Shown: positions 2,676 through 14,289 of the stretch, piece by piece | How the letters are laid out: each line of letters opens with the position of its first letter | Position numbering within the stretch: the stretch's first letter is position 1 | From: Coriobacteriales bacterium | Lineage (GTDB): Bacteria; Actinomycetota; Coriobacteriia; Coriobacteriales; UBA8131 | Direction: 5' to 3' | Length of the DNA stretch: 27,582 bases | Assembly (NCBI GenBank): GCA_031276475.1 | Contig: JAISMZ010000027.1 | Location: 1 to 27,582 of the forward strand | Notes under the pieces: model-generated | Databases searched by the model: none | Seen by the model: only the letters and a program-made list of their open reading frames with translations | What the model was told of the DNA's origin: nothing | Made by a program: the position numbers and the translations under genes

Positions 2676-4988
2676 TCACTTTGACATCTCCGGCGACCTG
2701 AAGTCTCGGTGCTTGCGAATCGATTCGCCGGGCATCATCCTGCGAGCATCGATGATACCTTCAATCTGCACCAGCTGCGCCAGTATCTTATCTATTGCAT
2801 TTATCTCGGCCAACTCAAAGAGAAAGCGCATCTCGACGATGCCGTCGCGGTGCGATGTTGAGTTGGCACCGATGATGTTCACGCCGCTGTTGGCCAACAC
2901 CAGGGTCACATCCTGAAGCAGACGCAGTCGGTCGACAGCCTCGATGAATATCTCAACATTATAGACGCCGGTGGTTGGGGCATCGGCCCAGGAGACCTCG
3001 ATGATCCGCTCCGGGGTAAGCATCAGCTCACGGGCGTTGGGGCAGTTTGTACGGTGCACCGAGACGCCGCGCCCGCGCGTCACAAAGCCGATGATCTCGT
3101 CGCCGGGCACGGGGTTGCAGCAATGCGAGAGCCGCACCAAAACGCCGTCGAGCCCTTTAACCCGCACGTTTGACCCCGGCCGATCGGCAGAGCGGCTCTT
3201 GCGCTCAGCCGGAGCGGGCAACATCGCCGAGGTCAGCTCGTCAAGGCTGGCTGAGCCGTCCTTCTCCACAGCTTTTTGATCCGCAGGAAGCACCAGATGC
3301 TTTAACAGTTTATTGGCGATCTGGGCGGCCTTCAGCTTGCCGGCGCCAATCTGAGCAAAGAGGTCGTCAGGGTTGTTCAGGCGCAGTTCAACAGCGATTG
3401 CCTTGAGCGCCTGAGCAGAGCGCTGGGCGGAGAGGCCCAGGCCGTGTTTGCGCACCTCGCGGGCCAGGATCTCGCGGCCCTTGAGGATGTCGTCGGAGCG
3501 CGTGATGCGCGAGAGGTAGCTGCGGATCTTCTGGCGCGCCGAGGGCGTCTTGACGATTGCCAGCCAGTCGCGCGAAGGCCCCGAAGACTTCTGCGTGAGT
3601 ATCTCTACACGGTCACCCATCTGCAACTCATGGGACAGCGGCACGATCTTGCCGTTGATCTTGGCGCCAACACAGTGGTTGCCCACCTCGGTGTGAATGG
3701 CATAGGCAAAGTCGATCGGCGTCGAGCCGGAACGCAGGCTGATCACCTCGCCTTTGGGCGTAAAGACGAAGACCTCGGTATAGTTAAGGTCGCGTTTAAA
3801 GGAGTCGAGGAACTCCTTGGGGTCGTCAGCATCGTCAACCCAGTCCAGCATCTGGCGCAACCACATCAGCTGCTCATCAAACTCCGCGTCAAAGCCCTCG
3901 CCGCGACCGCCCTTATAGCGCCAGTGCGCAGCGACACCGTACTCACTGGTATGGTGCATGTCACGGGTGCGAATCTGAATCTCCAGCGGCCGGGCGGCAG
4001 GGCCAATGACCGTGGTGTGCAGCGACTGATAGCGGTTGAACTTGGGCATCGCGATGTAGTCCTTAAAGCGCCCGGGCATCGGCCGCCAAAGCGTATGCAC
4101 CGCCCCCAGACAGGTGTAGCACTCCCCTATCGTCTCAACTATCAGGCGCAGCGCGATAAGATCGTATATCTCGGAGAAGTCCTTGCCCTTCTCGGTCATC
4201 TTCAGGTAGATGGAATAGAGATGTTTGGGGCGACCGGTTATCTTGGCCTCAACGCCGATTTTCTCCAGTTCGGCATGGATCTCGGCAATCGTTGAATCGA
4301 GGTATTCCTCGCGGGCCATCCGCGATTCAGCGACCATTCGCTGAATCTGGCCAAAGCGCACGGGATCGAGGTAGTAAAACGAGAGGTCCTCAAGCTCCCA
4401 TTTTATCGAGTTGATGCCCAGACGATGGGCCAGCGGCGCGTAGATCTCCATCGTCTCGCGGGCCTTGAAGATCCGCCGATCCTCGCGCAGCGCCTGTAGC
4501 GTGCGCATATTGTGCAGCCGGTCGGCGAGCTTGATAACGATCACGCGAATGTCGCGCGACATCGCCACCAGCATCTTGCGAACGTTGTTGGCCTGCTGTT
4601 CGCTTAAGGACACGATCTCCAGGCGGGTGATCTTGGTAACGCCGTCAACCAGTTTCATGACGTCGGCAGAAAAGGTCGCCTCAACCTCCTCTAAGGTCAG
4701 CGAGCAGTCCTCAACGGTGTCGTGGAGCAAAGCCGCCGTGATGGTATCCACATCCATCCGCAGCTCGGCAAGGATCAACGCCACCTGCACCGGGTGGTTG
4801 ATGAAGGGTTCGCCGGATTTACGCAGCTGGCCAGCATGGGCGCGCTCGGCAAAACGGTAGGCCTGACGCAGCTGGGCGAGCTCGTCTGCACCCATGTAGT
4901 CGCCAGCCTGCTCGTAGAGCCGCTCCAGAACCTGATCAGAAAGCTCGGCAGTTTTTTTATCGCTTTGTGCCATTTGCACTCTCGTCAT
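2676..4988 (-). CDS. relA: Bifunctional long RSH (p)ppGpp synthetase/hydrolase (HD-SYNTH-TGS-ZFD-ACT)
   Basis: RKSGEPFINHP, LLHDTVED, KLADRLHNMRT, RPKH, YQSLHT, EIQIRT, TGS (TPIDFAYAIHT), CCNPVPGD and a C-terminal ACT domain. The start could instead be ATG 4973. Confidence 0.96.
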   Translation of the reverse strand: MTRVQMAQSDKKTAELSDQVLERLYEQAGDYMGADELAQLRQAYRFAERAHAGQLRKSGEPFINHPVQVALILAELRMDVDTITAALLHDTVEDCSLTLEEVEATFSADVMKLVDGVTKITRLEIVSLSEQQANNVRKMLVAMSRDIRVIVIKLADRLHNMRTLQALREDRRIFKARETMEIYAPLAHRLGINSIKWELEDLSFYYLDPVRFGQIQRMVAESRMAREEYLDSTIAEIHAELEKIGVEAKITGRPKHLYSIYLKMTEKGKDFSEIYDLIALRLIVETIGECYTCLGAVHTLWRPMPGRFKDYIAMPKFNRYQSLHTTVIGPAARPLEIQIRTRDMHHTSEYGVAAHWRYKGGRGEGFDAEFDEQLMWLRQMLDWVDDADDPKEFLDSFKRDLNYTEVFVFTPKGEVISLRSGSTPIDFAYAIHTEVGNHCVGAKINGKIVPLSHELQMGDRVEILTQKSSGPSRDWLAIVKTPSARQKIRSYLSRITRSDDILKGREILAREVRKHGLGLSAQRSAQALKAIAVELRLNNPDDLFAQIGAGKLKAAQIANKLLKHLVLPADQKAVEKDGSASLDELTSAMLPAPAERKSRSADRPGSNVRVKGLDGVLVRLSHCCNPVPGDEIIGFVTRGRGVSVHRTNCPNARELMLTPERIIEVSWADAPTTGVYNVEIFIEAVDRLRLLQDVTLVLANSGVNIIGANSTSHRDGIVEMRFLFELAEINAIDKILAQLVQIEGIIDARRMMPGESIRKHRDFRSPEMSK

Positions 4989-7900
4989 TCATTCGTCGCC
5001 CGGGCAAAATGGGCCCGCGGATCATCTGCTCGATGCGTTGCGCCTTAGCCTCCAGTGCCCAGAGCTGAAAGTTCTCAAAGATGTTGAGGATAGCCTGGGC
5101 TTCGGCCTTCGCCTCCTCGTCCTGGGCATCTTCCAGGGCTGCCTCCAGTATAGCGCGATTGATAGCGACATCATCGGCACCGTAGAGCAGGTGCACGCCG
5201 CTGTCCTGACCGTCGCGACCGGCCCGACCGCTCATCTGATTGAGGTCGACGGCGGCAAAGGGCAGATGAAAGAGGAAGACATCGCGGACGTCGGGGATGT
5301 TCACGCCCTCGCCAAAGGCGCTGGTGGCAACGATCGTACTGGCCTGGCGCTGGCGATAGGCCTGCTCGATGCGCAGGCGGTCGGCGCGCTCCATACCAGC
5401 ATGATAGAATACTATCTTATCTGCGAAATCCGGCAGTTCCCTGCGCAGGGATTTACACAGCTCAATGGCGCTCGCTCGCGCGTTGACGTAGATCAGCGAG
5501 CGCACCCCGTCGCTCAGGCGCTCGGCCAGATAGGCTACCCGCTCGCGCTGGCCACGGGCGTCAAAGAGCTTTAAATTGGGCCGCGTGGTTGCGTCCCGAA
5601 CCAGGGCTGCAATGCCCAGCTCGGCGCAGATCCGCTGTGCGTGGGCATCCCCGGCAGTTGCCGAGAGCGCCAGCACGGTGGCCTCGGGAAACAGCGCGCG
5701 CAGCTCACCGGCACGAGCGTAGACCGGGCGATGGGCGCTGCCGGAGGTGGCAATGTGGTGCGCCTCGTCAAAGACCAGAAGACCGGTCCGGTCGCCTTGA
5801 ACAAACTGGCGGCGGTTGAAGGCCAGGTACTCGGGGGTGGTCAGCAGGACGCTTACTTCGCCGCTGCGGTAGGCGTTGAGAATACGTCCGCGCTCGGGGC
5901 CGGGTGTCTGGCCGCTCAGGCGCTCGACCTTCAGCCCCAGCGATGAGAGGCTTTCGCTGAGGTGGAAGTACTGGTCGTTGAGCAATGCCCGCAGCGGAAA
6001 GACGATGATCGTGCCGCGTTGCTGCTCGCATGCCAGCCAGGCGGCGGCGATCTGAAAGATCAGTGACTTGCCCCGGCCGGTGGCCATCACCGTCAGCGTA
6101 GAGCGCCTGTTGGCGAGGTTGGCAATGGAGCGGGCCTGGGCGGCGTGCAGGCTGGCGTCAGGGCCAAGAGTGCGCTCCAGAAAGGCTTTGGCAAAGGTTT
6201 GGATGTCGGTGCCGGAGGCGATGGTAGGGGTTGCCGCAGCGGGCGCCGGTGCGGCTGAAGCACTGGCTGTTGCCGCAGCGGGCGCCTGCGAAGCACAGCC
6301 GGTCGCCAGGCGTACTCCACGGATGTGTAGTTTAACGCTGCGCCGGCCCCGCCACTCGTTGATCTCGGGTGTGAAGGCCAAATCGAAGCGCCCCTCGCCG
6401 GACGCGAGTGCGACATAGAGGGGGTCATCCACACCTGGGCAGTTAAACCAGATCGCCTCCAGGGTCTGGGGGCGTGCGGCGGAGTTGCTCGAACGCGCCA
6501 GAAAGCTGAGGTGGTTTTGCTGAGCACCGATGCGCTGCACGCGGTAGACGCCCACGTCCGCGAGCATGAAATGGGGCTGAGGATTGTCTTTGCCAAAAGG
6601 CTCGGCCATCTCCAACTCTTCGATTGCCTGAATCGTAAAATCGGCGAAGTCTGCCTCGGAGTCTATCACCAGCGGCGTCAGAAACTGCTCGGCGGGCAGA
6701 GCCGCAACATAGTCTTGCATCTGCCGGGTGAAGGCCTCGAGCTTATCAGCGGGCAGAGAGACGCCAACAGCGGCGGCATGGCCTCCAAAGCGGGTCAGCA
6801 TTGGTGCACAGGACTCCACCGCCTTAAAGAGATTGACCGTACCGACGCTACGGCCAGAGCCGGTGGCCATGCCGTCTTCAAGGGAGAAGACTATCGCCGG
6901 CAGGGCGCGGCTGTGAGCCAGGCGCGAGGCGGCGATGCCACGCACCCCGTCGTGCCAATTCTCGCCGGCGGCAATGATCACTCGTGCATCATCGCTGACC
7001 TCCGCCGTCTGGGCCAGCGCCGCCTGACTGAGTTCCTGCTCGGTGCCGCGACGCAGCGTGTTCAATGCGTCCAGACGCTCAGCCAGAGTCGCGGCAACAC
7101 CCGCATTGTCGCAAAGCAGCAGATCCAGTGCCAGGGCGGCGTCGTCCATCCGCCCGGCCGCGTTCAGACGCGGAATCAGGCCAAAGGAGAGATCGAGGGC
7201 CTTCAGGGGCGCAGGCATTGCAGTGGCGCCGGACGCCGGGCCAGCAGACGTGGCGGCAGTAGCGGGCGCTGAGCCGTTACCGTTGCCTGCGCGCCTGCTA
7301 ACGAGGCGCAGCAGAGCCTCGATGCCCGGACGCGGCGAGCGGACAAGGCGCAGCAGCCCCTCCTGCACGAGGGCGCGGTTGGCGCCGCGCAGCGACATCA
7401 CGTCGGCTATTGTACCCAGAGCCGCCAGATCGGTATACTCCAGCCAAGACGTTGGCTGCCCGAGCAGGGCGCCGGTGGCCTGAACTAGCTTTAAAGCCAC
7501 GCCGGCGCCCGCGAGGATGCCAAACTCACACTGCGGGTCGAGCTTTGGGTCGGTTACCGCCAGCGCCTGTGGTAAGACGCCGGTTGGCTCGTGATGGTCG
7601 GTGACGATCGTCTCCACGCCGTGTTCTTTGAGCTGCCGAACCTCTTCTATTGAGGTAATGCCGCTGTCCACCGTGATGACCAGCTCGGGCTCCAGCTGAT
7701 AAACCCGCTCCAGGGCCGCCTCGGTAAGGCCGTAGCCCTCGTCCAGACGGTGCGGGATCACGGCCTCCACCACAGCGCCGAGGCGACGCAGAAATAACAG
7801 CATGATGGCGGAGGAAACCAGCCCGTCAACGTCGTAGTCGCCAAAGACCGCCAGCCGGCGTTTGTCGCGCACCGCCTGGGCCAGGGCCGCGGCCGCCTCC

Positions 7901-8124
7901 GTCATTCCCGGTATCGCCTCTGGCGCTCCCCAATCGCGTTGCAATGAGGGCGTTAGGAAGTCGCGGGCGGCCGCGTAGTCGCCCATCCCGCGGGCAATCA
8001 GCAGGCGCGGCAGAAGCGCCGCGCACTCCAACTTCTGCTGGAGCGCGCGGACGGCATCTTTATCTGGATGTTGAATATCCCAGATCGCTGGTACCTTCTT
8101 CCCAGGGAGGTGCCGATTAATCAT
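4957..8124 (-). CDS. recJ: RecJ ssDNA exonuclease fused to a C-terminal SF2 (RecQ-like DEAH) helicase core
   Basis: RecJ motifs GDYDVDG, ITVDSG, TDHH, GTIADV, GSGRS and FGGHAAA. After an Ala-rich linker come helicase motifs ATGRGKS, DEAH, SAT, YHAGM, ATSAFGEGVN and QMSGRAGRDG. Confidence 0.92.
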   Translation of the reverse strand: MINRHLPGKKVPAIWDIQHPDKDAVRALQQKLECAALLPRLLIARGMGDYAAARDFLTPSLQRDWGAPEAIPGMTEAAAALAQAVRDKRRLAVFGDYDVDGLVSSAIMLLFLRRLGAVVEAVIPHRLDEGYGLTEAALERVYQLEPELVITVDSGITSIEEVRQLKEHGVETIVTDHHEPTGVLPQALAVTDPKLDPQCEFGILAGAGVALKLVQATGALLGQPTSWLEYTDLAALGTIADVMSLRGANRALVQEGLLRLVRSPRPGIEALLRLVSRRAGNGNGSAPATAATSAGPASGATAMPAPLKALDLSFGLIPRLNAAGRMDDAALALDLLLCDNAGVAATLAERLDALNTLRRGTEQELSQAALAQTAEVSDDARVIIAAGENWHDGVRGIAASRLAHSRALPAIVFSLEDGMATGSGRSVGTVNLFKAVESCAPMLTRFGGHAAAVGVSLPADKLEAFTRQMQDYVAALPAEQFLTPLVIDSEADFADFTIQAIEELEMAEPFGKDNPQPHFMLADVGVYRVQRIGAQQNHLSFLARSSNSAARPQTLEAIWFNCPGVDDPLYVALASGEGRFDLAFTPEINEWRGRRSVKLHIRGVRLATGCASQAPAAATASASAAPAPAAATPTIASGTDIQTFAKAFLERTLGPDASLHAAQARSIANLANRRSTLTVMATGRGKSLIFQIAAAWLACEQQRGTIIVFPLRALLNDQYFHLSESLSSLGLKVERLSGQTPGPERGRILNAYRSGEVSVLLTTPEYLAFNRRQFVQGDRTGLLVFDEAHHIATSGSAHRPVYARAGELRALFPEATVLALSATAGDAHAQRICAELGIAALVRDATTRPNLKLFDARGQRERVAYLAERLSDGVRSLIYVNARASAIELCKSLRRELPDFADKIVFYHAGMERADRLRIEQAYRQRQASTIVATSAFGEGVNIPDVRDVFLFHLPFAAVDLNQMSGRAGRDGQDSGVHLLYGADDVAINRAILEAALEDAQDEEAKAEAQAILNIFENFQLWALEAKAQRIEQMIRGPILPGRRMNDESANGTKR
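6230..6286. repeat. 18-nt direct repeat pair (39-nt period) in the RecJ-helicase linker
   Basis: GTTGCCGCAGCGGGCGCC at 6230-6247 and 6269-6286, encoding APAAAT twice. Confidence 0.75.
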
Positions 8125-8261
8125 TGCACAGCCATCTTCCGGCTAGGTAGCACTAAATCGAGGGCAAACGGAATCACTGCACAGCAACCCGATGCACACC
8201 CACGATTTAGTGCTGCCTGACTCGGAATCTGGCGCACAGGCATTAATCGGCACCTCCCTAG
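8102..8261. mobile_element. Non-autonomous IS5-like MITE (152 bp) between secF and recJ
   Basis: Perfect 16-bp terminal inverted repeats GGAGGTGCCGATTAAT (8106-8121 / 8242-8257). Inner inverted repeat 15/16 (8145-8160 / 8203-8218). Flanks CCAG (8102-8105) and CTAG (8258-8261) resemble a 4-bp target duplication. No transposase in the window. Confidence 0.65.
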
Positions 8262-9214
8262 TCCTGTAGGTTCTCCGCGGTCGTGAAGGTGCCCACGCCC
8301 TCGCCGTATTTCTCGTAGAGCTTCTTATATTTGGGCTCGCGCTGCTTCCAAAGGGCATAGAGCGGGCTGGCGATGCCGATTGAGGAATAGGCGCCGAGCA
8401 CCAATCCGATGGTCATAGCAAAAGCGAAGTCCTTAAGCGTCTCGCCGCCGAAGAAAAGCATCGCCACCACGGGCACCAGGGAGGTCAGCGTGGTGTTGAA
8501 GGTACGGATGAATACCTGATTGATGGAGTGGTTGGCCACCGTGATGAAAGAGTGGTGCGCCGTGGTTGCCACGTTGTCGTTGATCCGGTGGAAGACGACG
8601 ACGGTGTCATAGAGCGAATAGCCCATGATCGTCAGCAGGGCGGCAATCACGTTGGGGGTCACCTCGCGTCCGAAGACCGCATAGACGCCGATGATGATCA
8701 GCAGGTCGTGGAGCAAAGCGATAACCGCCACAACACCCATTTTGTACTCAAAGCGAATCGCGATGTAGATGATGATCAGGGCGAGGGCGACCGCAAAGGC
8801 GATCAGCGAAGTGCGGGTGACCTCGTCGCCCCAGGCCGCTCCGATGGTGGTCACCTCGGCGGAGTTGTCGCTTAAGGACAGCGCGCTGACCACCTCGTCG
8901 CCAAGTTTGGAGGCCTCGGCGGCGTCGGTGATGGCGACGCGGACGATGAAGCCGTTGGATCCGCCGGCGTCGCTGGTGCTTTGAACTATCGGTGTCTCGC
9001 CACCAGCAGCCTCCACCGCGCTGCGCATCTGCTCGGTGGTTATCTCGCCGGTGTTGGAGAAGGCGATTGACGTGCCGCCGACGAACTCGATGCCAAAGTT
9101 CAGCCCGCGCAGCGGCAAAGCGATAAGCGAGATGACCATCAAGACCAGCGAGACGATGAAGAAGATCCGACGCTTGGAGAGGAAATCGATGTCTTTTTTA
9201 AACGGCCTAACCAT
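8258..9214 (-). CDS. secF: Protein translocase subunit SecF
   Basis: GLNFGIEFVGGT, IAIRFEYK, ALLHD, GYSLYDTVVVFHRI, RTFNTTLT and GAYSSIGIASP. ATG 9214 overlaps the secD end, with GAGGTG 6 nt upstream. Confidence 0.95.
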   Translation of the reverse strand: MVRPFKKDIDFLSKRRIFFIVSLVLMVISLIALPLRGLNFGIEFVGGTSIAFSNTGEITTEQMRSAVEAAGGETPIVQSTSDAGGSNGFIVRVAITDAAEASKLGDEVVSALSLSDNSAEVTTIGAAWGDEVTRTSLIAFAVALALIIIYIAIRFEYKMGVVAVIALLHDLLIIIGVYAVFGREVTPNVIAALLTIMGYSLYDTVVVFHRINDNVATTAHHSFITVANHSINQVFIRTFNTTLTSLVPVVAMLFFGGETLKDFAFAMTIGLVLGAYSSIGIASPLYALWKQREPKYKKLYEKYGEGVGTFTTAENLQD

Positions 9215-11006
9215 GAACGGCACCTCGATTCAACTCGCCGGCCTCAAGCGCGACGCGCTGGTCCTCCTCCACACCCCAAAAAGCGGGATGACGGGTGATC
9301 GCACGGGGAGCGAGCAGGCGGATCAGAGGGGCCTTGAAGATCAGCATCGTGACGATGTCGCAGATCACGCCGAGGGCCAGCGTCAGGCCGAAGCCCTTAA
9401 CCGAGCCGACGCCGATGAAGAACAGTGCCAGCGCCGAGACCAGCGTTACCAGGTCGGCGTCGATGGAGGTGATGATCGCGTGTTTGACGCCGGTCACCGA
9501 GGAGGCGCGCACCGAGCGGCCCATCCGGATCTCCTCCTTAAAGCGCTCGAGCACAAGGATAGAGGAGTCGGCCGCCACGCCGATGGCCAAGACGATGCCG
9601 GCGATGCCCGCCAGCGACAGCGCGAACTGGCCAAAGTAGGAAAGCGTCGCCAGAATGCCGAGGTAGAGCAGGGCAAAGACGCCGACCGCGCCGGCGGTCA
9701 GCAGGCCGATGCCGCGATAGAAGACAAGCAGGTAGATGGCCACCAGAGCCAGGCCGATCAGGGCGACCGTCACGCCGCGGGCGAGCGACTCCTGGCCTAG
9801 CGTCGGGCCGATGACCTGGGAGTTGATGACCTGGAGGCTGACCGGCAGCGAGCCTGACTCGAGCACCGTCTTTAAGGCGGTGGCCGATTGCAGATTGTAA
9901 TCGCCGGTGATCGCGGTGTCGCCGGTAGTGATCGCGCTTTGCACGGCCGGTGTGGACTGGATGACGCCGTCGAGGACGATGGCGACCTTACCCTTGGTCG
10001 GGTAGAGTCGCGTGGTGGCGTCGGCCCAGGCCTGGGTGGCTGTGGCGTTGAGCTTGAGGTTCACCGAGTAGTAGGCGCTGGTCTCGCTTTGTTTGCCGAG
10101 GCTTACCGAGGTGATCTCGGAGCCGGAGAATATCGGGGTGTAGCTGCCCGCGGGAAGGGTCAGTGGCTGGTAGCGGGTGGTGGGGGTGGCTGGTGTTTCG
10201 GGAGTGGTGTCGGGGGCGGGGGCGGGAGCATCATCGGTGGCGGCAGCAGGATCGATTACGGCGGAGTCGCTGGTGGCTGCGGCAGCCGCGGCCGCCGCGG
10301 CAGCCGCGGGGTCGGGTGCGACGGCAGGATCGGCCGCGGCGGAGTCGCTGGCAGTGGCCGGGTCGCTGGCAGTGGCCGGGTCGCTGGCTGAAGCCGCGGG
10401 GTCGGTTGCCGCGGGGTCGGGAGCGGTGGTAATCTCTTGCGTCGCCGCGCTCTCCGTGACCTGGGTGTACATGCCCGCCGGCGCCCGTCCGTTGGCCAGT
10501 GGCACGGTTATCTGCTCGGCGGTGATATTGCCAAAGGCCAACATCTCGTTGAGCTCCTGGTCAGAGATCAGAGCTCCCGAGTTAAGGGCCTCGGTAACGG
10601 CAGGATCGTTGACCGCTGAAAGGTCGACGAACTCCAAAACACCGGTCTGACCGATGGTCTGCAGGGCCTGGGTCTGATCGACGACGCCGGGGATCTGCAC
10701 CAGCAGCTGGTTGGTACCCTGGATCTGGACGCTGGCCTCACTGGCACCCAGCGCGTTTACGCGGCGCTCGACTATCTGCTGCGACGACTGCATCTCCTCG
10801 TTCGTCGGCGTTGAGTCGTCGGTCTTGTTTGCCTGCAAGACGACGGAAAGGCCGCCTTGAACATCGAGGCCCTGGGTGATCTTTTCGCCCGGTGGCACAA
10901 ACATGAACACCGAACCGGCCAGCAATACCGCCAGCAGTATCAACAACACGATATGGTTGCGGGCCTGCGAAGGCCGCTTTTTCGGCGTGAATCTCCTATC
11001 CGCCAT
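9207..11006 (-). CDS. secD: Protein translocase subunit SecD with a long Ala/Pro/Asp/Thr insertion in the P1 domain
   Basis: GLDVQGG, ERRVNALGASE, VQIPG, GVLEF, IVLDG, ESGSLP, IGPTLG, GVAADSSILVLERFKEE and VKGFGLTL. ATG 11006 follows AGAGGGGAAGCT. Confidence 0.95.
   Translation of the reverse strand: MADRRFTPKKRPSQARNHIVLLILLAVLLAGSVFMFVPPGEKITQGLDVQGGLSVVLQANKTDDSTPTNEEMQSSQQIVERRVNALGASEASVQIQGTNQLLVQIPGVVDQTQALQTIGQTGVLEFVDLSAVNDPAVTEALNSGALISDQELNEMLAFGNITAEQITVPLANGRAPAGMYTQVTESAATQEITTAPDPAATDPAASASDPATASDPATASDSAAADPAVAPDPAAAAAAAAAAATSDSAVIDPAAATDDAPAPAPDTTPETPATPTTRYQPLTLPAGSYTPIFSGSEITSVSLGKQSETSAYYSVNLKLNATATQAWADATTRLYPTKGKVAIVLDGVIQSTPAVQSAITTGDTAITGDYNLQSATALKTVLESGSLPVSLQVINSQVIGPTLGQESLARGVTVALIGLALVAIYLLVFYRGIGLLTAGAVGVFALLYLGILATLSYFGQFALSLAGIAGIVLAIGVAADSSILVLERFKEEIRMGRSVRASSVTGVKHAIITSIDADLVTLVSALALFFIGVGSVKGFGLTLALGVICDIVTMLIFKAPLIRLLAPRAITRHPAFWGVEEDQRVALEAGELNRGAVHG
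10344..10388. repeat. 18-nt tandem repeat (2.5 copies) in the secD insertion
   Basis: GTCGCTGGCAGTGGCCGG x2 plus GTCGCTGGC, encoding DPATAS repeats. Confidence 0.8.
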
Positions 11007-11066
11007 AGCTTCCCCTCTGTAGTGGACGGCAGCGGTAAGCCGCGCCCGTGGGTTAACATCCTCGTT

Positions 11067-11072
11067 AGTATA
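11067..11072 (-). promoter_or_regulatory. Putative sigma-A -10 element for secD
   Basis: TATACT on the minus strand in the tgt-secD gap, about 60 nt upstream of the ATG. No convincing -35 at 17 nt. Confidence 0.4.
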
Positions 11073-11097
11073 ACGGTTTATGACGCCAACACAGCCC

Positions 11098-11132
11098 AAA
11101 AAAAGCGGCGTCTTCGGTCACCGAGCAGCTGC
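11098..11132 (-). terminator. Weak putative intrinsic terminator after tgt
   Basis: Imperfect stem (GCAGC...TCGG-TGA-CCGA...GCCGC) followed by T7, directly after the tgt stop. Confidence 0.4.
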
Positions 11133-11134
11133 CC

Positions 11135-13437
<2,303 letters not shown>

Positions 13438-13451
<14 letters not shown>

Positions 13452-14289
13452 CGCCGCTCCCCTGCTCGTGCAGATACAGGGACGGTTCATCTGAAAGCGG
13501 ACACGGGGACGGTTCATCTGTCCTGTTTTCCTGCAAGACACCTGCTGCAGCAGTAAGTTTTTCAGAAAACAGGACAGATGAACCATCCCCGTGTCCGCTT
13601 TCAGATGACTCCCGTCCTTCGGTATCGCGCTTTGTGTTGCTGCGCTGTTCGCGTCGGGCCGCACGTCGGGCAACGCGTTCCAGCTCGGCCTCCTGCGCGG
13701 AAAAGCGGCAACCGCAGTAGTTCTGGCGATAGAGGCCGGCCTGGCGGGAAAGGGCCACCGCCTCGGAGTAAAAAGCGCGAAAATCGTCCTCGCGGGTGCT
13801 CAGCCCGCAGGTCGCAGCCGCACGGGCCAGTTCGGCATTGATCGTCTCCACAAACTGATAGGGGCTGATGGTCAGGGTGCTGGCGATGCAGGCAATGCCC
13901 CGCTCGGCCGCCACCCGGGCCGCAGCTTCAAAGCGCAGGCGATAGCAGGCACTGCAGCGCCGCAGGCGGGCGGCGCGATTGGCTGCGTAATCGGGGCTGT
14001 TAGCGATCAGCGGGTAGGGCCCGCCAAAGACTGCGACGTCCTCCTCCCAAAGTAAGCCCTGATAGTCGGGCGCACTGAAAGGCAGCCCGAGGGAGCTTGC
14101 CCAGGCCACAAAAGTCTCCAACCGGCGCTGGTACTCGTCCTGTGGTTGAATATTCGGGTTAAAGTAAAAGGCGTGTACGCGCAAACCATCGCGCGCCAGA
14201 AACGACAGCGGAATGATGGAGCAGGGGGCACAGCAGACGTGAAGCAGGAGATCGGGTGTACCGGTTTTACTCAGCGAATCAGCCCTCAT
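13438..14289 (-). CDS. queH: Epoxyqueuosine reductase QueH with an element-derived C-terminal extension
   Basis: LLLHVCCAPCS, FYFNPNIQP..EY.RR, CSACYRLR, STLTISPYQ and LYRQNYCGCRFS. Directly upstream of queA-tgt. Confidence 0.92.
13470..13628. repeat. Composite ~160-bp palindrome (BIME-like, four GGGA(C/T)GG-core units) in the queH 3' end
   Basis: 44-bp arms at 13487-13530 / 13565-13608 (43/44). Outer pairing GGACGG/CCGTCC and GATAC/GTATC. A 15-nt direct repeat GGGACGGTTCATCTG at 13479 and 13506. A central 12-bp palindrome CTGCTGCAGCAG (13542-13553) lies exactly on the symmetry axis. Confidence 0.88.

Follow-up and report, generated by a model that had tools for sequence, protein, structure and literature searches.

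A hairpin-forming repeat inserted at the secF stop codon as the probable donor of the recJ start codon in a Coriobacteriales bacterium

Where does translation of recJ begin when a long palindrome separates the gene from secF, immediately upstream? The question is raised by a 27,582-nt stretch of DNA (contig JAISMZ010000027.1; the window, to which all positions refer) from a Coriobacteriales bacterium whose genome, G000, is a metagenome bin of 2.07 Mb in 299 contigs, 82% complete. Two minus-strand genes meet there, secF (8258..9223; Pfam SecD_SecF_C, E = 4e-56) and recJ (4957..8124), and a palindromic element of 152 bp occupies the junction (8106..8257, likewise described on the minus strand). 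The answer that we favor, and regard as probably correct, is that the element is one copy of a small, non-coding, hairpin-forming repeat family resembling MITEs (miniature transposable elements bounded by inverted repeats), that it inserted at the stop codon of secF, and that in doing so it gave recJ its start. The case is a clear example of a known phenomenon and not a new kind of system. An earlier note on this DNA had come to much the same view: its interpretation is right in the main line and wrong only in the detail of IS5 parentage and a 4-bp target duplication.

The element is delimited here as it was in the earlier note (8105-8258 if the fixed outer G and C are counted), and the perfect 16-bp terminal inverted repeats (TIRs) described there are borne out: the arm GGAGGTGCCGATTAAT at 8106-8121 has its exact reverse complement at 8242-8257. 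With the AG/CT alongside, the arms extend to 18 nt (8104..8121 on the recJ side, 8242..8259 on the secF side; 100% complementary). Allowing up to three mismatches, the 16-mer is found in the window only at these two sites, where shuffled sequences predict 0.13 matches. Read on the minus strand, the element runs from what we call its B-end, on the secF side, to its A-end, on the recJ side. An inner inverted repeat (8145-8164 / 8199-8218) makes the apical portion of the predicted hairpin, which takes in the entire 152 bp at -99.2 kcal/mol, against -55 +/- 4 in shuffles (z = -10.9). The element has no match in Rfam; a promoter and terminator scan finds none within it, and a viral-contig search returned a single match, judged to be due to chance. 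Its plus-strand flanks are CCAG (left) and CTAG (right), as previously stated; the CA of the former (8103..8104; TG on the minus strand), on the recJ side, is read as a decayed TA.

The secF side shows how such an insertion might leave its upstream neighbor intact. The stop codon of secF, TAG at 8258..8260 (minus strand), is shared: its T and A (8260-8259) are the flanking TA and its G (8258) is the outermost base of the element, so that the insertion does lie exactly at the stop, as the earlier note had it. We propose that the element entered the TA of the stop codon, within CTAG, and that its first base, G, restored TAG, in which case SecF would have been left unchanged. SecF can in fact be aligned with its relatives as far as its final residues. 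The state before insertion can apparently be glimpsed in a relative, G010, where secF ends in ...CAGGACTAG and is followed by 5 nt, ATTCT, and then by TTG-CGA-CAA-AAA-TGG, with CTAG intact. The secF 3' ends of G010 and of the window align as DNA up to the shared CAGGACTAG, which is where the window's element begins. The G010 junction thus reads as an orthologous empty site, such as the earlier note had proposed looking for in relatives. None of the recJ loci of 19 relatives (none from the same genus; RecJ identity is about 50%) contains the end motif of the repeat. As to gene order, secF and recJ are directly adjacent in G000 and G010, while six relatives of the same family (loci L033, L036, L043, L044, L047 and L048) have about 0.9-1.0 kb, probably one gene, between them.

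Could the junction be an artefact of assembly, two contigs having been joined through a shared repeat? The bin is certainly fragmented, and the contigs of several relatives terminate within the repeat. Nevertheless, secF and recJ are also adjacent in G010 and four other relatives, which argues that the junction is no chimera; the secF 3' end is the same in G010; and the copies of the repeat differ from one another by 11-14%, which makes them poor bridges for misassembly. We find an artefactual junction scarcely credible.

The recJ side is where the insertion would have mattered most. Upstream, the recJ frame is closed within the element by an in-frame TAG (8143..8145, minus strand). Between this TAG and the codon for Trp15 (8080..8082, minus strand), the first RecJ position that is conserved with relatives, there is only one in-frame ATG, GTG or TTG: the ATG at 8122..8124 (minus strand), which lies inside the A-end, 17 nt from the end of the element. 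The earlier claim that the sole upstream in-frame start is element-encoded therefore holds for canonical starts. The motif surrounding this ATG, CAATGATTAATCGG, is conserved in the repeat family. The relatives place the ancestral start elsewhere. Alignments to the 19 start mostly at query residue 13-17 (range 3-27); W15 pairs without gaps with W5 of the G010 RecJ (NCBI protein, our P0010), which begins MRQKW; and the relatives' RecJ proteins start 2-12 residues ahead of the conserved Trp. Just inside the present reading frame, beyond the element, lies GGGAAGAAG (8095..8103, minus strand), the former secF-recJ spacer and likely the old ribosome-binding site, translated today as Gly-Lys-Lys; the next codon is GTA (8092..8094, minus strand; Val11), four codons ahead of Trp15 and the probable ancestral start in decayed form. 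Taking out 156 nt (52 codons), which is the element together with one copy of the flank, reconstructs the empty site as TAG-GAAGAAG-GTA-CCA-GCG-ATC-TGG, in which the GTA is the same codon as the TTG start of G010 and as the ATG of two other relatives (MTQDW in L035, MTQSW in L050). Because it occupies the start codon of the relatives, the suggestion in the earlier note that GTA is a decayed GTG is very plausible. (An ancestral recJ start at an ATG 36 codons upstream, within secF, was considered and rejected: it requires a 108-nt overlap, and the G010 start lies 5 nt after the secF stop.)

Put together, these alignments suggest that the element very probably supplies the recJ start codon, ATG 8124. 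The sequence of events might have been as follows. The ancestral recJ start would have been an NTG codon, separated from the secF stop by 7 nt. Insertion would have moved recJ 156 nt from secF, and the outward ATG of the element's A-end would have happened to share the recJ frame. Initiation there would add ten residues, of which the element would contribute MINRHLP and the old spacer GKK, and the old start could later have drifted from GTG to GTA, a change that would be silent once the codon was internal. The probable N-terminal peptide of RecJ, as predicted from ATG 8124, is MINRHLPGKKVPAIW.

How would ribosomes reach an AUG so placed? One or the other of two routes seems most likely. The first is coupling to ribosomes terminating at the secF UAG, which would sit at the foot of the same stem. 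The second makes use of a 40-codon frame that spans the element (8121..8243, minus strand), from ATG 8243, 9 nt behind GGAGG at 8257-8253, to TGA 8123-8121: translation of this frame from AUG 8243 would melt the hairpin and end at a UGA overlapping the recJ AUG, where ribosomes could restart. The earlier note had described the tail of this frame as a four-codon upstream open reading frame, MAVQ, from ATG 8135. The peptide and the ATGA overlap (TGA 8123-8121 with the recJ ATG) are as described, but the four-codon extent is not, the frame being open for 40 codons from ATG 8243. The 40-codon frame has no match in Pfam. It is not kept in all copies of the repeat and is therefore not regarded as a built-in device.

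Several observations weigh against this account of the locus, some touching on initiation and some on history. The start AUG is itself unpaired in the predicted hairpin, lying in an internal loop (3x3) that the repeat family conserves; its surroundings are predicted to be paired, with a mean P(unpaired) of 0.20 over -15..+15, and that value reaches just 0.37 when a ribosome is modelled as held on the secF UAG. The only Shine-Dalgarno-like sequence, GGAAG, is weak and distant, 11 nt upstream of AUG 8124. A perfect 20-bp stem is a likely target of RNase III, which could remove the first codons of recJ. As for the history, a search of 5.8 billion proteins found no closer relative, none exceeding 62% RecJ identity, so that the empty site belongs to a different genus and the succession of events is a reconstruction. 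TA is self-complementary, and its duplication is consequently not separable from an extension of the inverted repeats. Finally, no full-length insertion sequence with GGGAGGCGCCGATTAAT ends was found in G000 or in five repeat-carrying relatives, which is weak evidence, these being draft bins. (Two further scans bear on the lack of close relatives: one of a genome collection with the RecJ N-terminal domain was dominated by conserved motifs, with a best identity of 45% and no close relative, and a metagenome scan with RecJ residues 11-70 gave a single irrelevant match.)

The difficulties with initiation can be turned into a different proposal: the insertion is real but its ATG is unused, and RecJ is made from one of the non-canonical codons GTA 8094, ATC 8085 and ATT 8076, by way of the old GGGAAGAAG, or from TTG 8031. 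The spacer sequence is indeed intact, AAGG lies 8 nt before ATC 8085-8083, the element's ATG, poorly served by its Shine-Dalgarno sequence, sits within a very stable hairpin, and a crude codon-usage gene caller favored TTG 8031. However, GTA and ATC would at best initiate very weakly. TTG 8031 would cost 31 residues, among them W15 to L32, a stretch that can be aligned with relatives; conservation begins around residue 15, so this start would lose conserved sequence. And the silent change from GTG to GTA is expected only once the codon is no longer a start. This proposal seems to us unlikely, and we retain ATG 8124 as the probable start.

Is the element at the junction one of many? When it is compared with its own genome by BLAST, 74 matches are returned, and the best full copies are 86-89% identical. 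A motif scan of G000 finds 36 paired TIR matches: 25 full copies, 9 bare palindromes of just 26 nt, and 2 odd pairs, of 60 and 163 bp, that later copy counts exclude. This is the non-coding, multicopy repeat of MITE type that the earlier note had anticipated; of the two things that it proposed to look for in the genome, the further copies are there, and no IS5 transposase has been found. The full copies in G000 are 107, 151-152, 157, 160-163, 209 or 218 bp long, and about 100 ends are recognizable across the genome, with the consensus GGAGGCRCCGATTAAT. Among 33 other genomes of the same taxonomic family, the end motif (with at most one mismatch) is present in 14, at up to 20-23 ends per genome, and a reversed control gives almost none; it is present in none of 300 genomes of other Coriobacteriia. 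The distribution of the repeat family is limited to a single uncultured family of Coriobacteriales. The element at the secF-recJ junction accordingly shows the generic traits of a MITE: it is short, carries no transposase gene, has terminal inverted repeats, has many dispersed copies and has an empty orthologous site.

The 26-nt palindromes (GGAGGCRCCG-ATTAAT-CGGYGCCTCC; on contigs C13, C41, C49, C101, C153, C267, C272, C294 and C299) have flanks like those of full copies, and one of them is in frame within a 629-aa open frame. They look like the scars of deletions that ran from one ATTAAT repeat of a full element to the other.

Two properties of the family may be singled out. The first concerns length: measured between GGAGG and CCTCC, the size classes of G000 (26, 107, 152, 161, 209 and 218) and those of its relatives (119, 161 and 218) are all 2 mod 3, and therefore, with the G, the C and the TA, every size class adds whole codons. 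The second concerns the arms. Within a copy they are identical at 14.68 of 16 positions, against 13.32 of 16 between copies (permutation p < 5e-5); variants private to a copy occur in both of its arms (AACCAAT/ATTGGTT, GACTAAT/ATTAGTC, GGCCCC/GGGGCC); and a 12-copy alignment has compensatory changes at 22 of 64 stem pairs. Since the arms are more alike within copies than between them, the perfect ends of the window's copy are a matter of concerted arm evolution and not of youth.

What kind of element was the parent? The earlier note read the flanks CTAG/CCAG as a 4-bp duplication of the kind made by IS5, one base having since been substituted, and on this point the family speaks against it. 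In 34 paired copies the base adjoining the left end is G in 32 and the base adjoining the right end is C in 30, and these bases do not track their would-be direct-repeat partners: of the 11 copies with T at left position 1, just one has T at right position 1, and of the 8 copies with A at right position 4, not one has A at left position 4. Direct-repeat mismatches at the four flank positions number 12, 16, 22 and 11 of 34. With G and C nearly fixed and independent of their partners, the ends must be written as GGGAGG...CCTCCC and the flank as TA. That TA is found at both ends, in a Y-TA-R context; decay has often turned it into CA (left) or TG (right). The flanks would thus fit a TA dinucleotide in a YTAR/CTAG target, the signature of DDE-type elements that duplicate TA. 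The attribution to IS5 itself also goes without support from an enzyme, neither DDE_Tnp_1 nor DDE_Tnp_1_2 being found in G000: for DDE_Tnp_1 (PF01609) the best score there is 16.8 bits against a cut-off of 23, and DDE_Tnp_1_2 (PF13586) and DDE_3 (PF13358) yield nothing, with the genome at its 82% completeness. The likeness of the element's ends to those of IS5 (GGAAGGTGCGAA), put forward in the earlier note, is treated here as an assumption.

Some subgroups of the IS5 family also duplicate TA. An element of the IS5 family, IS427-like (DDE_Tnp_1_2), is present in the relative G007 (C11:1-2007, locus L162), with GGTCCTGTCGTCAATAG ends and TA-containing flanks, and is unrelated to the repeat; TA-targeting elements of IS5 type do live in this bacterial family. 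In their YTAR/CTAG-like target and in ends beginning with GG, IS5-family MITEs, including those of the IS427-like TA-duplicating subgroups, have something in common with the family described here, but the ends of the G007 element do not match; IS5 proper differs in its 4-bp duplication, which is absent here. The other obvious source is the IS630/Tc1-mariner family, which duplicates TA (PMC2170065); IS630 prefers TA in 5'-CTAG-3', to go by the title of Tenzen and Ohtsubo 1991, as cited in PMC2170065. MITEs derived from IS630, such as the pneumococcal RUP, share with this family their short length, the absence of coding capacity, defined TIRs and a TA within a CTAG-like site; here, however, no transposase of IS630 type is found in G000, and the IS630-like elements (PF13358) of G007 and G018 have ends unrelated to the repeat family. 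We file the family as MITE-like without assigning it a parent.

Another suggestion dispenses with a DDE parent altogether: the repeats might be hairpins of REP/REPIN type, moved as single-stranded DNA by a Y1 enzyme (RAYT or of IS200/IS605 type). The whole element is palindromic, its arms co-evolve, as described above (in itself a count against a plain DDE relic), a 26-nt minimal hairpin exists in 9 copies, and a DDE partner has not been found. REPs and REPINs with their RAYTs are likewise dispersed palindromes with compensatory evolution of their stems. On the other hand, Y1_Tnp (PF01797) has no match at E <= 0.01 in the 82% complete G000; the ends, GGGAGG, lack the GTAG or CGTC head that defines REPs, which are 20-40-nt palindromes (PMC3733652); and terminal repeats of a definite 17-18 nt, with TA in YTAR at their sides, mark TA-duplicating DDE elements (PMC2170065). 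For the 26-mers, deletion offers another origin, as suggested above. Transport by a Y1 enzyme is in our view rather improbable.

The secF stop is not the only gene end that the family touches. Read inward, an end presents two stops in one frame, TAG (the flank and the first base) and TAA (in GATTAAT). Of 101 ends, 27 are entered in the stop frame by an open frame of at least 100 codons, and of these frames the flank TAG/TAA ends 13 and the TAA within the end another 12. The secF case is typical of the family: 25 ends abut or supply a gene's stop. (The 12 long open frames that meet no flank TAG, for example on contigs C174, C135, C294, C299 and C76, read five codons into the element, stop at its TAA and so gain a ...GGAD-type tail; for these the element is the source of the stop codon.) Read outward, the A-end is CAATGATTAAT, with ATG, TGA and TAA, one in each frame. 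Thirteen of 32 A-end ATGs open frames of at least 100 codons, most of them belonging to copies inside genes or followed by a better start downstream. A second likely donation of a start is to atpF (C101:6058-6696), whose frame begins MINRRLP at the ATG of a 107-bp copy upstream of the gene (contig C101:6058-6784, locus L154). An alternative start would truncate the first hydrophobic segment, and no other plausible start precedes that segment.

Copies are also tolerated within genes. Usually two of the six frames are open through the repeat, and at least seven copies are in frame inside real genes, those for an [FeFe]-hydrogenase, a class-I GATase, CcmF, a DinG-like helicase, a BcrAD-type activase, a Na/H exchanger and the CCA-adding enzyme. 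In the hydrogenase of contig C281 the Pfam match to Fe_hyd_lg_C covers 341 residues against a 245-position profile, and PDB hydrogenases align in two parts that omit query residues 102-161, the site of the element. Pfam and PDB alignments break exactly at in-gene copies, which may be read as empty sites at the level of protein. The copy in question, of 161 bp (C281:4640-4800, locus L146, aa 540-594), is in frame within the H-cluster domain; in the best PDB alignment (2n0s_A, an Fe-hydrogenase) the insert is loosely aligned to a gapped stretch, and other PDB hydrogenases skip it. The CCA-adding enzyme (C202:1-720, locus L158, minus strand) has two adjoining element-derived inserts, about 80 residues in total, between GGCVRDALCG and the catalytic DWDIATSA motif, and its frame is open.

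If so many gene ends carry the repeat, is it perhaps built for gene boundaries? Such a device would have two in-frame stops at either end, an AUG facing outward in an internal loop, a whole-codon length and a hairpin that sets the upstream stop next to the start downstream, and together these would re-couple translation; insertion into a tight operon junction would then restore rather than break translational coupling. A number of the features already described suit this idea: the seven size classes, all 2 mod 3; the conserved asymmetry of A- and B-ends, with the AUG in the 3x3 loop; the three frames of the A-end, two with stops and one with an ATG; the 25 ends on or supplying stop codons; and compensatory changes maintaining the hairpin. 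Against it, 1) orientation shows no bias, 7 copies lying with and 5 against co-directional genes that they separate, which argues against an orientation-dependent function; 2) the 40-codon relay frame is broken in several copies, that at atpF among them; 3) the hugging of stop codons follows from the choice of TA/CTAG targets together with purifying selection; 4) the survival of copies inside genes can account for the whole-codon length; and 5) a terminating ribosome, as modelled, opens up the surroundings of the AUG to a modest degree. We judge a purpose-built boundary device improbable.

Similar behavior has been met in other bacterial repeats. The Rickettsia palindromic elements (RPEs) are palindromic repeats of about 150 bp that are found in frame in unrelated genes and are translated (PMC10969869); in-frame insertion, with a frame open through the repeat, is common to both families, but there is no sequence relation, the phylum is different, and the present family adds clear TIRs with TA flanks and sites at stop codons. 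RUP carries stops in all six frames (PMC2229807), as against a repeat with two frames open here. The short form of the Correia element of Neisseria has been found fused to open reading frames (PMC2229807), and the QMITEs of Coxiella overlap the 3' ends of functional genes and can give them C-terminal residues and stops (PMC5896051). Both are hairpin-forming MITEs of 100-160 bp, like this family, and have no sequence relation to it. The family belongs to none of the RUP, RPE, Correia and QMITE sequence families and behaves like known bacterial MITEs. In the literature on comparable repeats that was searched for it, start-codon donation goes unmentioned.

What makes the locus worth describing is that a selfish repeat would be seen here rewriting the punctuation of genes in a clean and datable case, with an empty site to show the state before. 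The upstream gene retains its stop; the DNA-repair gene downstream would gain a start and ten N-terminal residues, and its old start would decay silently. The family extends translated palindromic repeats of the Rickettsia type to uncultured Coriobacteriia, including the catalytic domains of an [FeFe]-hydrogenase and a CCA-adding enzyme. There is also a practical side: about 25 stops and probably at least two starts in G000 depend on this one family, and calls of starts and stops beside such repeats should take the repeat into account.

Some observations on the surroundings may be added. Upstream of secF lies secD (9207-11099, minus strand; confirmed by Pfam). The recJ product, 1055 aa long when counted from ATG 8124, is a fusion of the RecJ exonuclease with an SF2 helicase, its domains in the precomputed listing being DHH, DHHA1, RecJ_OB, DEAD and Helicase_C (PF01368, PF02272, PF17768, PF00270 and PF00271). 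This is the usual form in Coriobacteriia: 2200 database proteins match at E <= 1e-30, and nearly all of the 120 listed, the best of those 2200, have both RecJ and helicase Pfam domains; most are simply named RecJ. By the names of its RecJ homologues the bacterium belongs in Coriobacteriales. Elsewhere in the window, at 13111-13185 and 13470-13628, other palindromic families lie in queA and queH and are translated; they share no sequence with the family at the secF-recJ junction, and G000 is thus host to at least two or three separate families of hairpin repeats.

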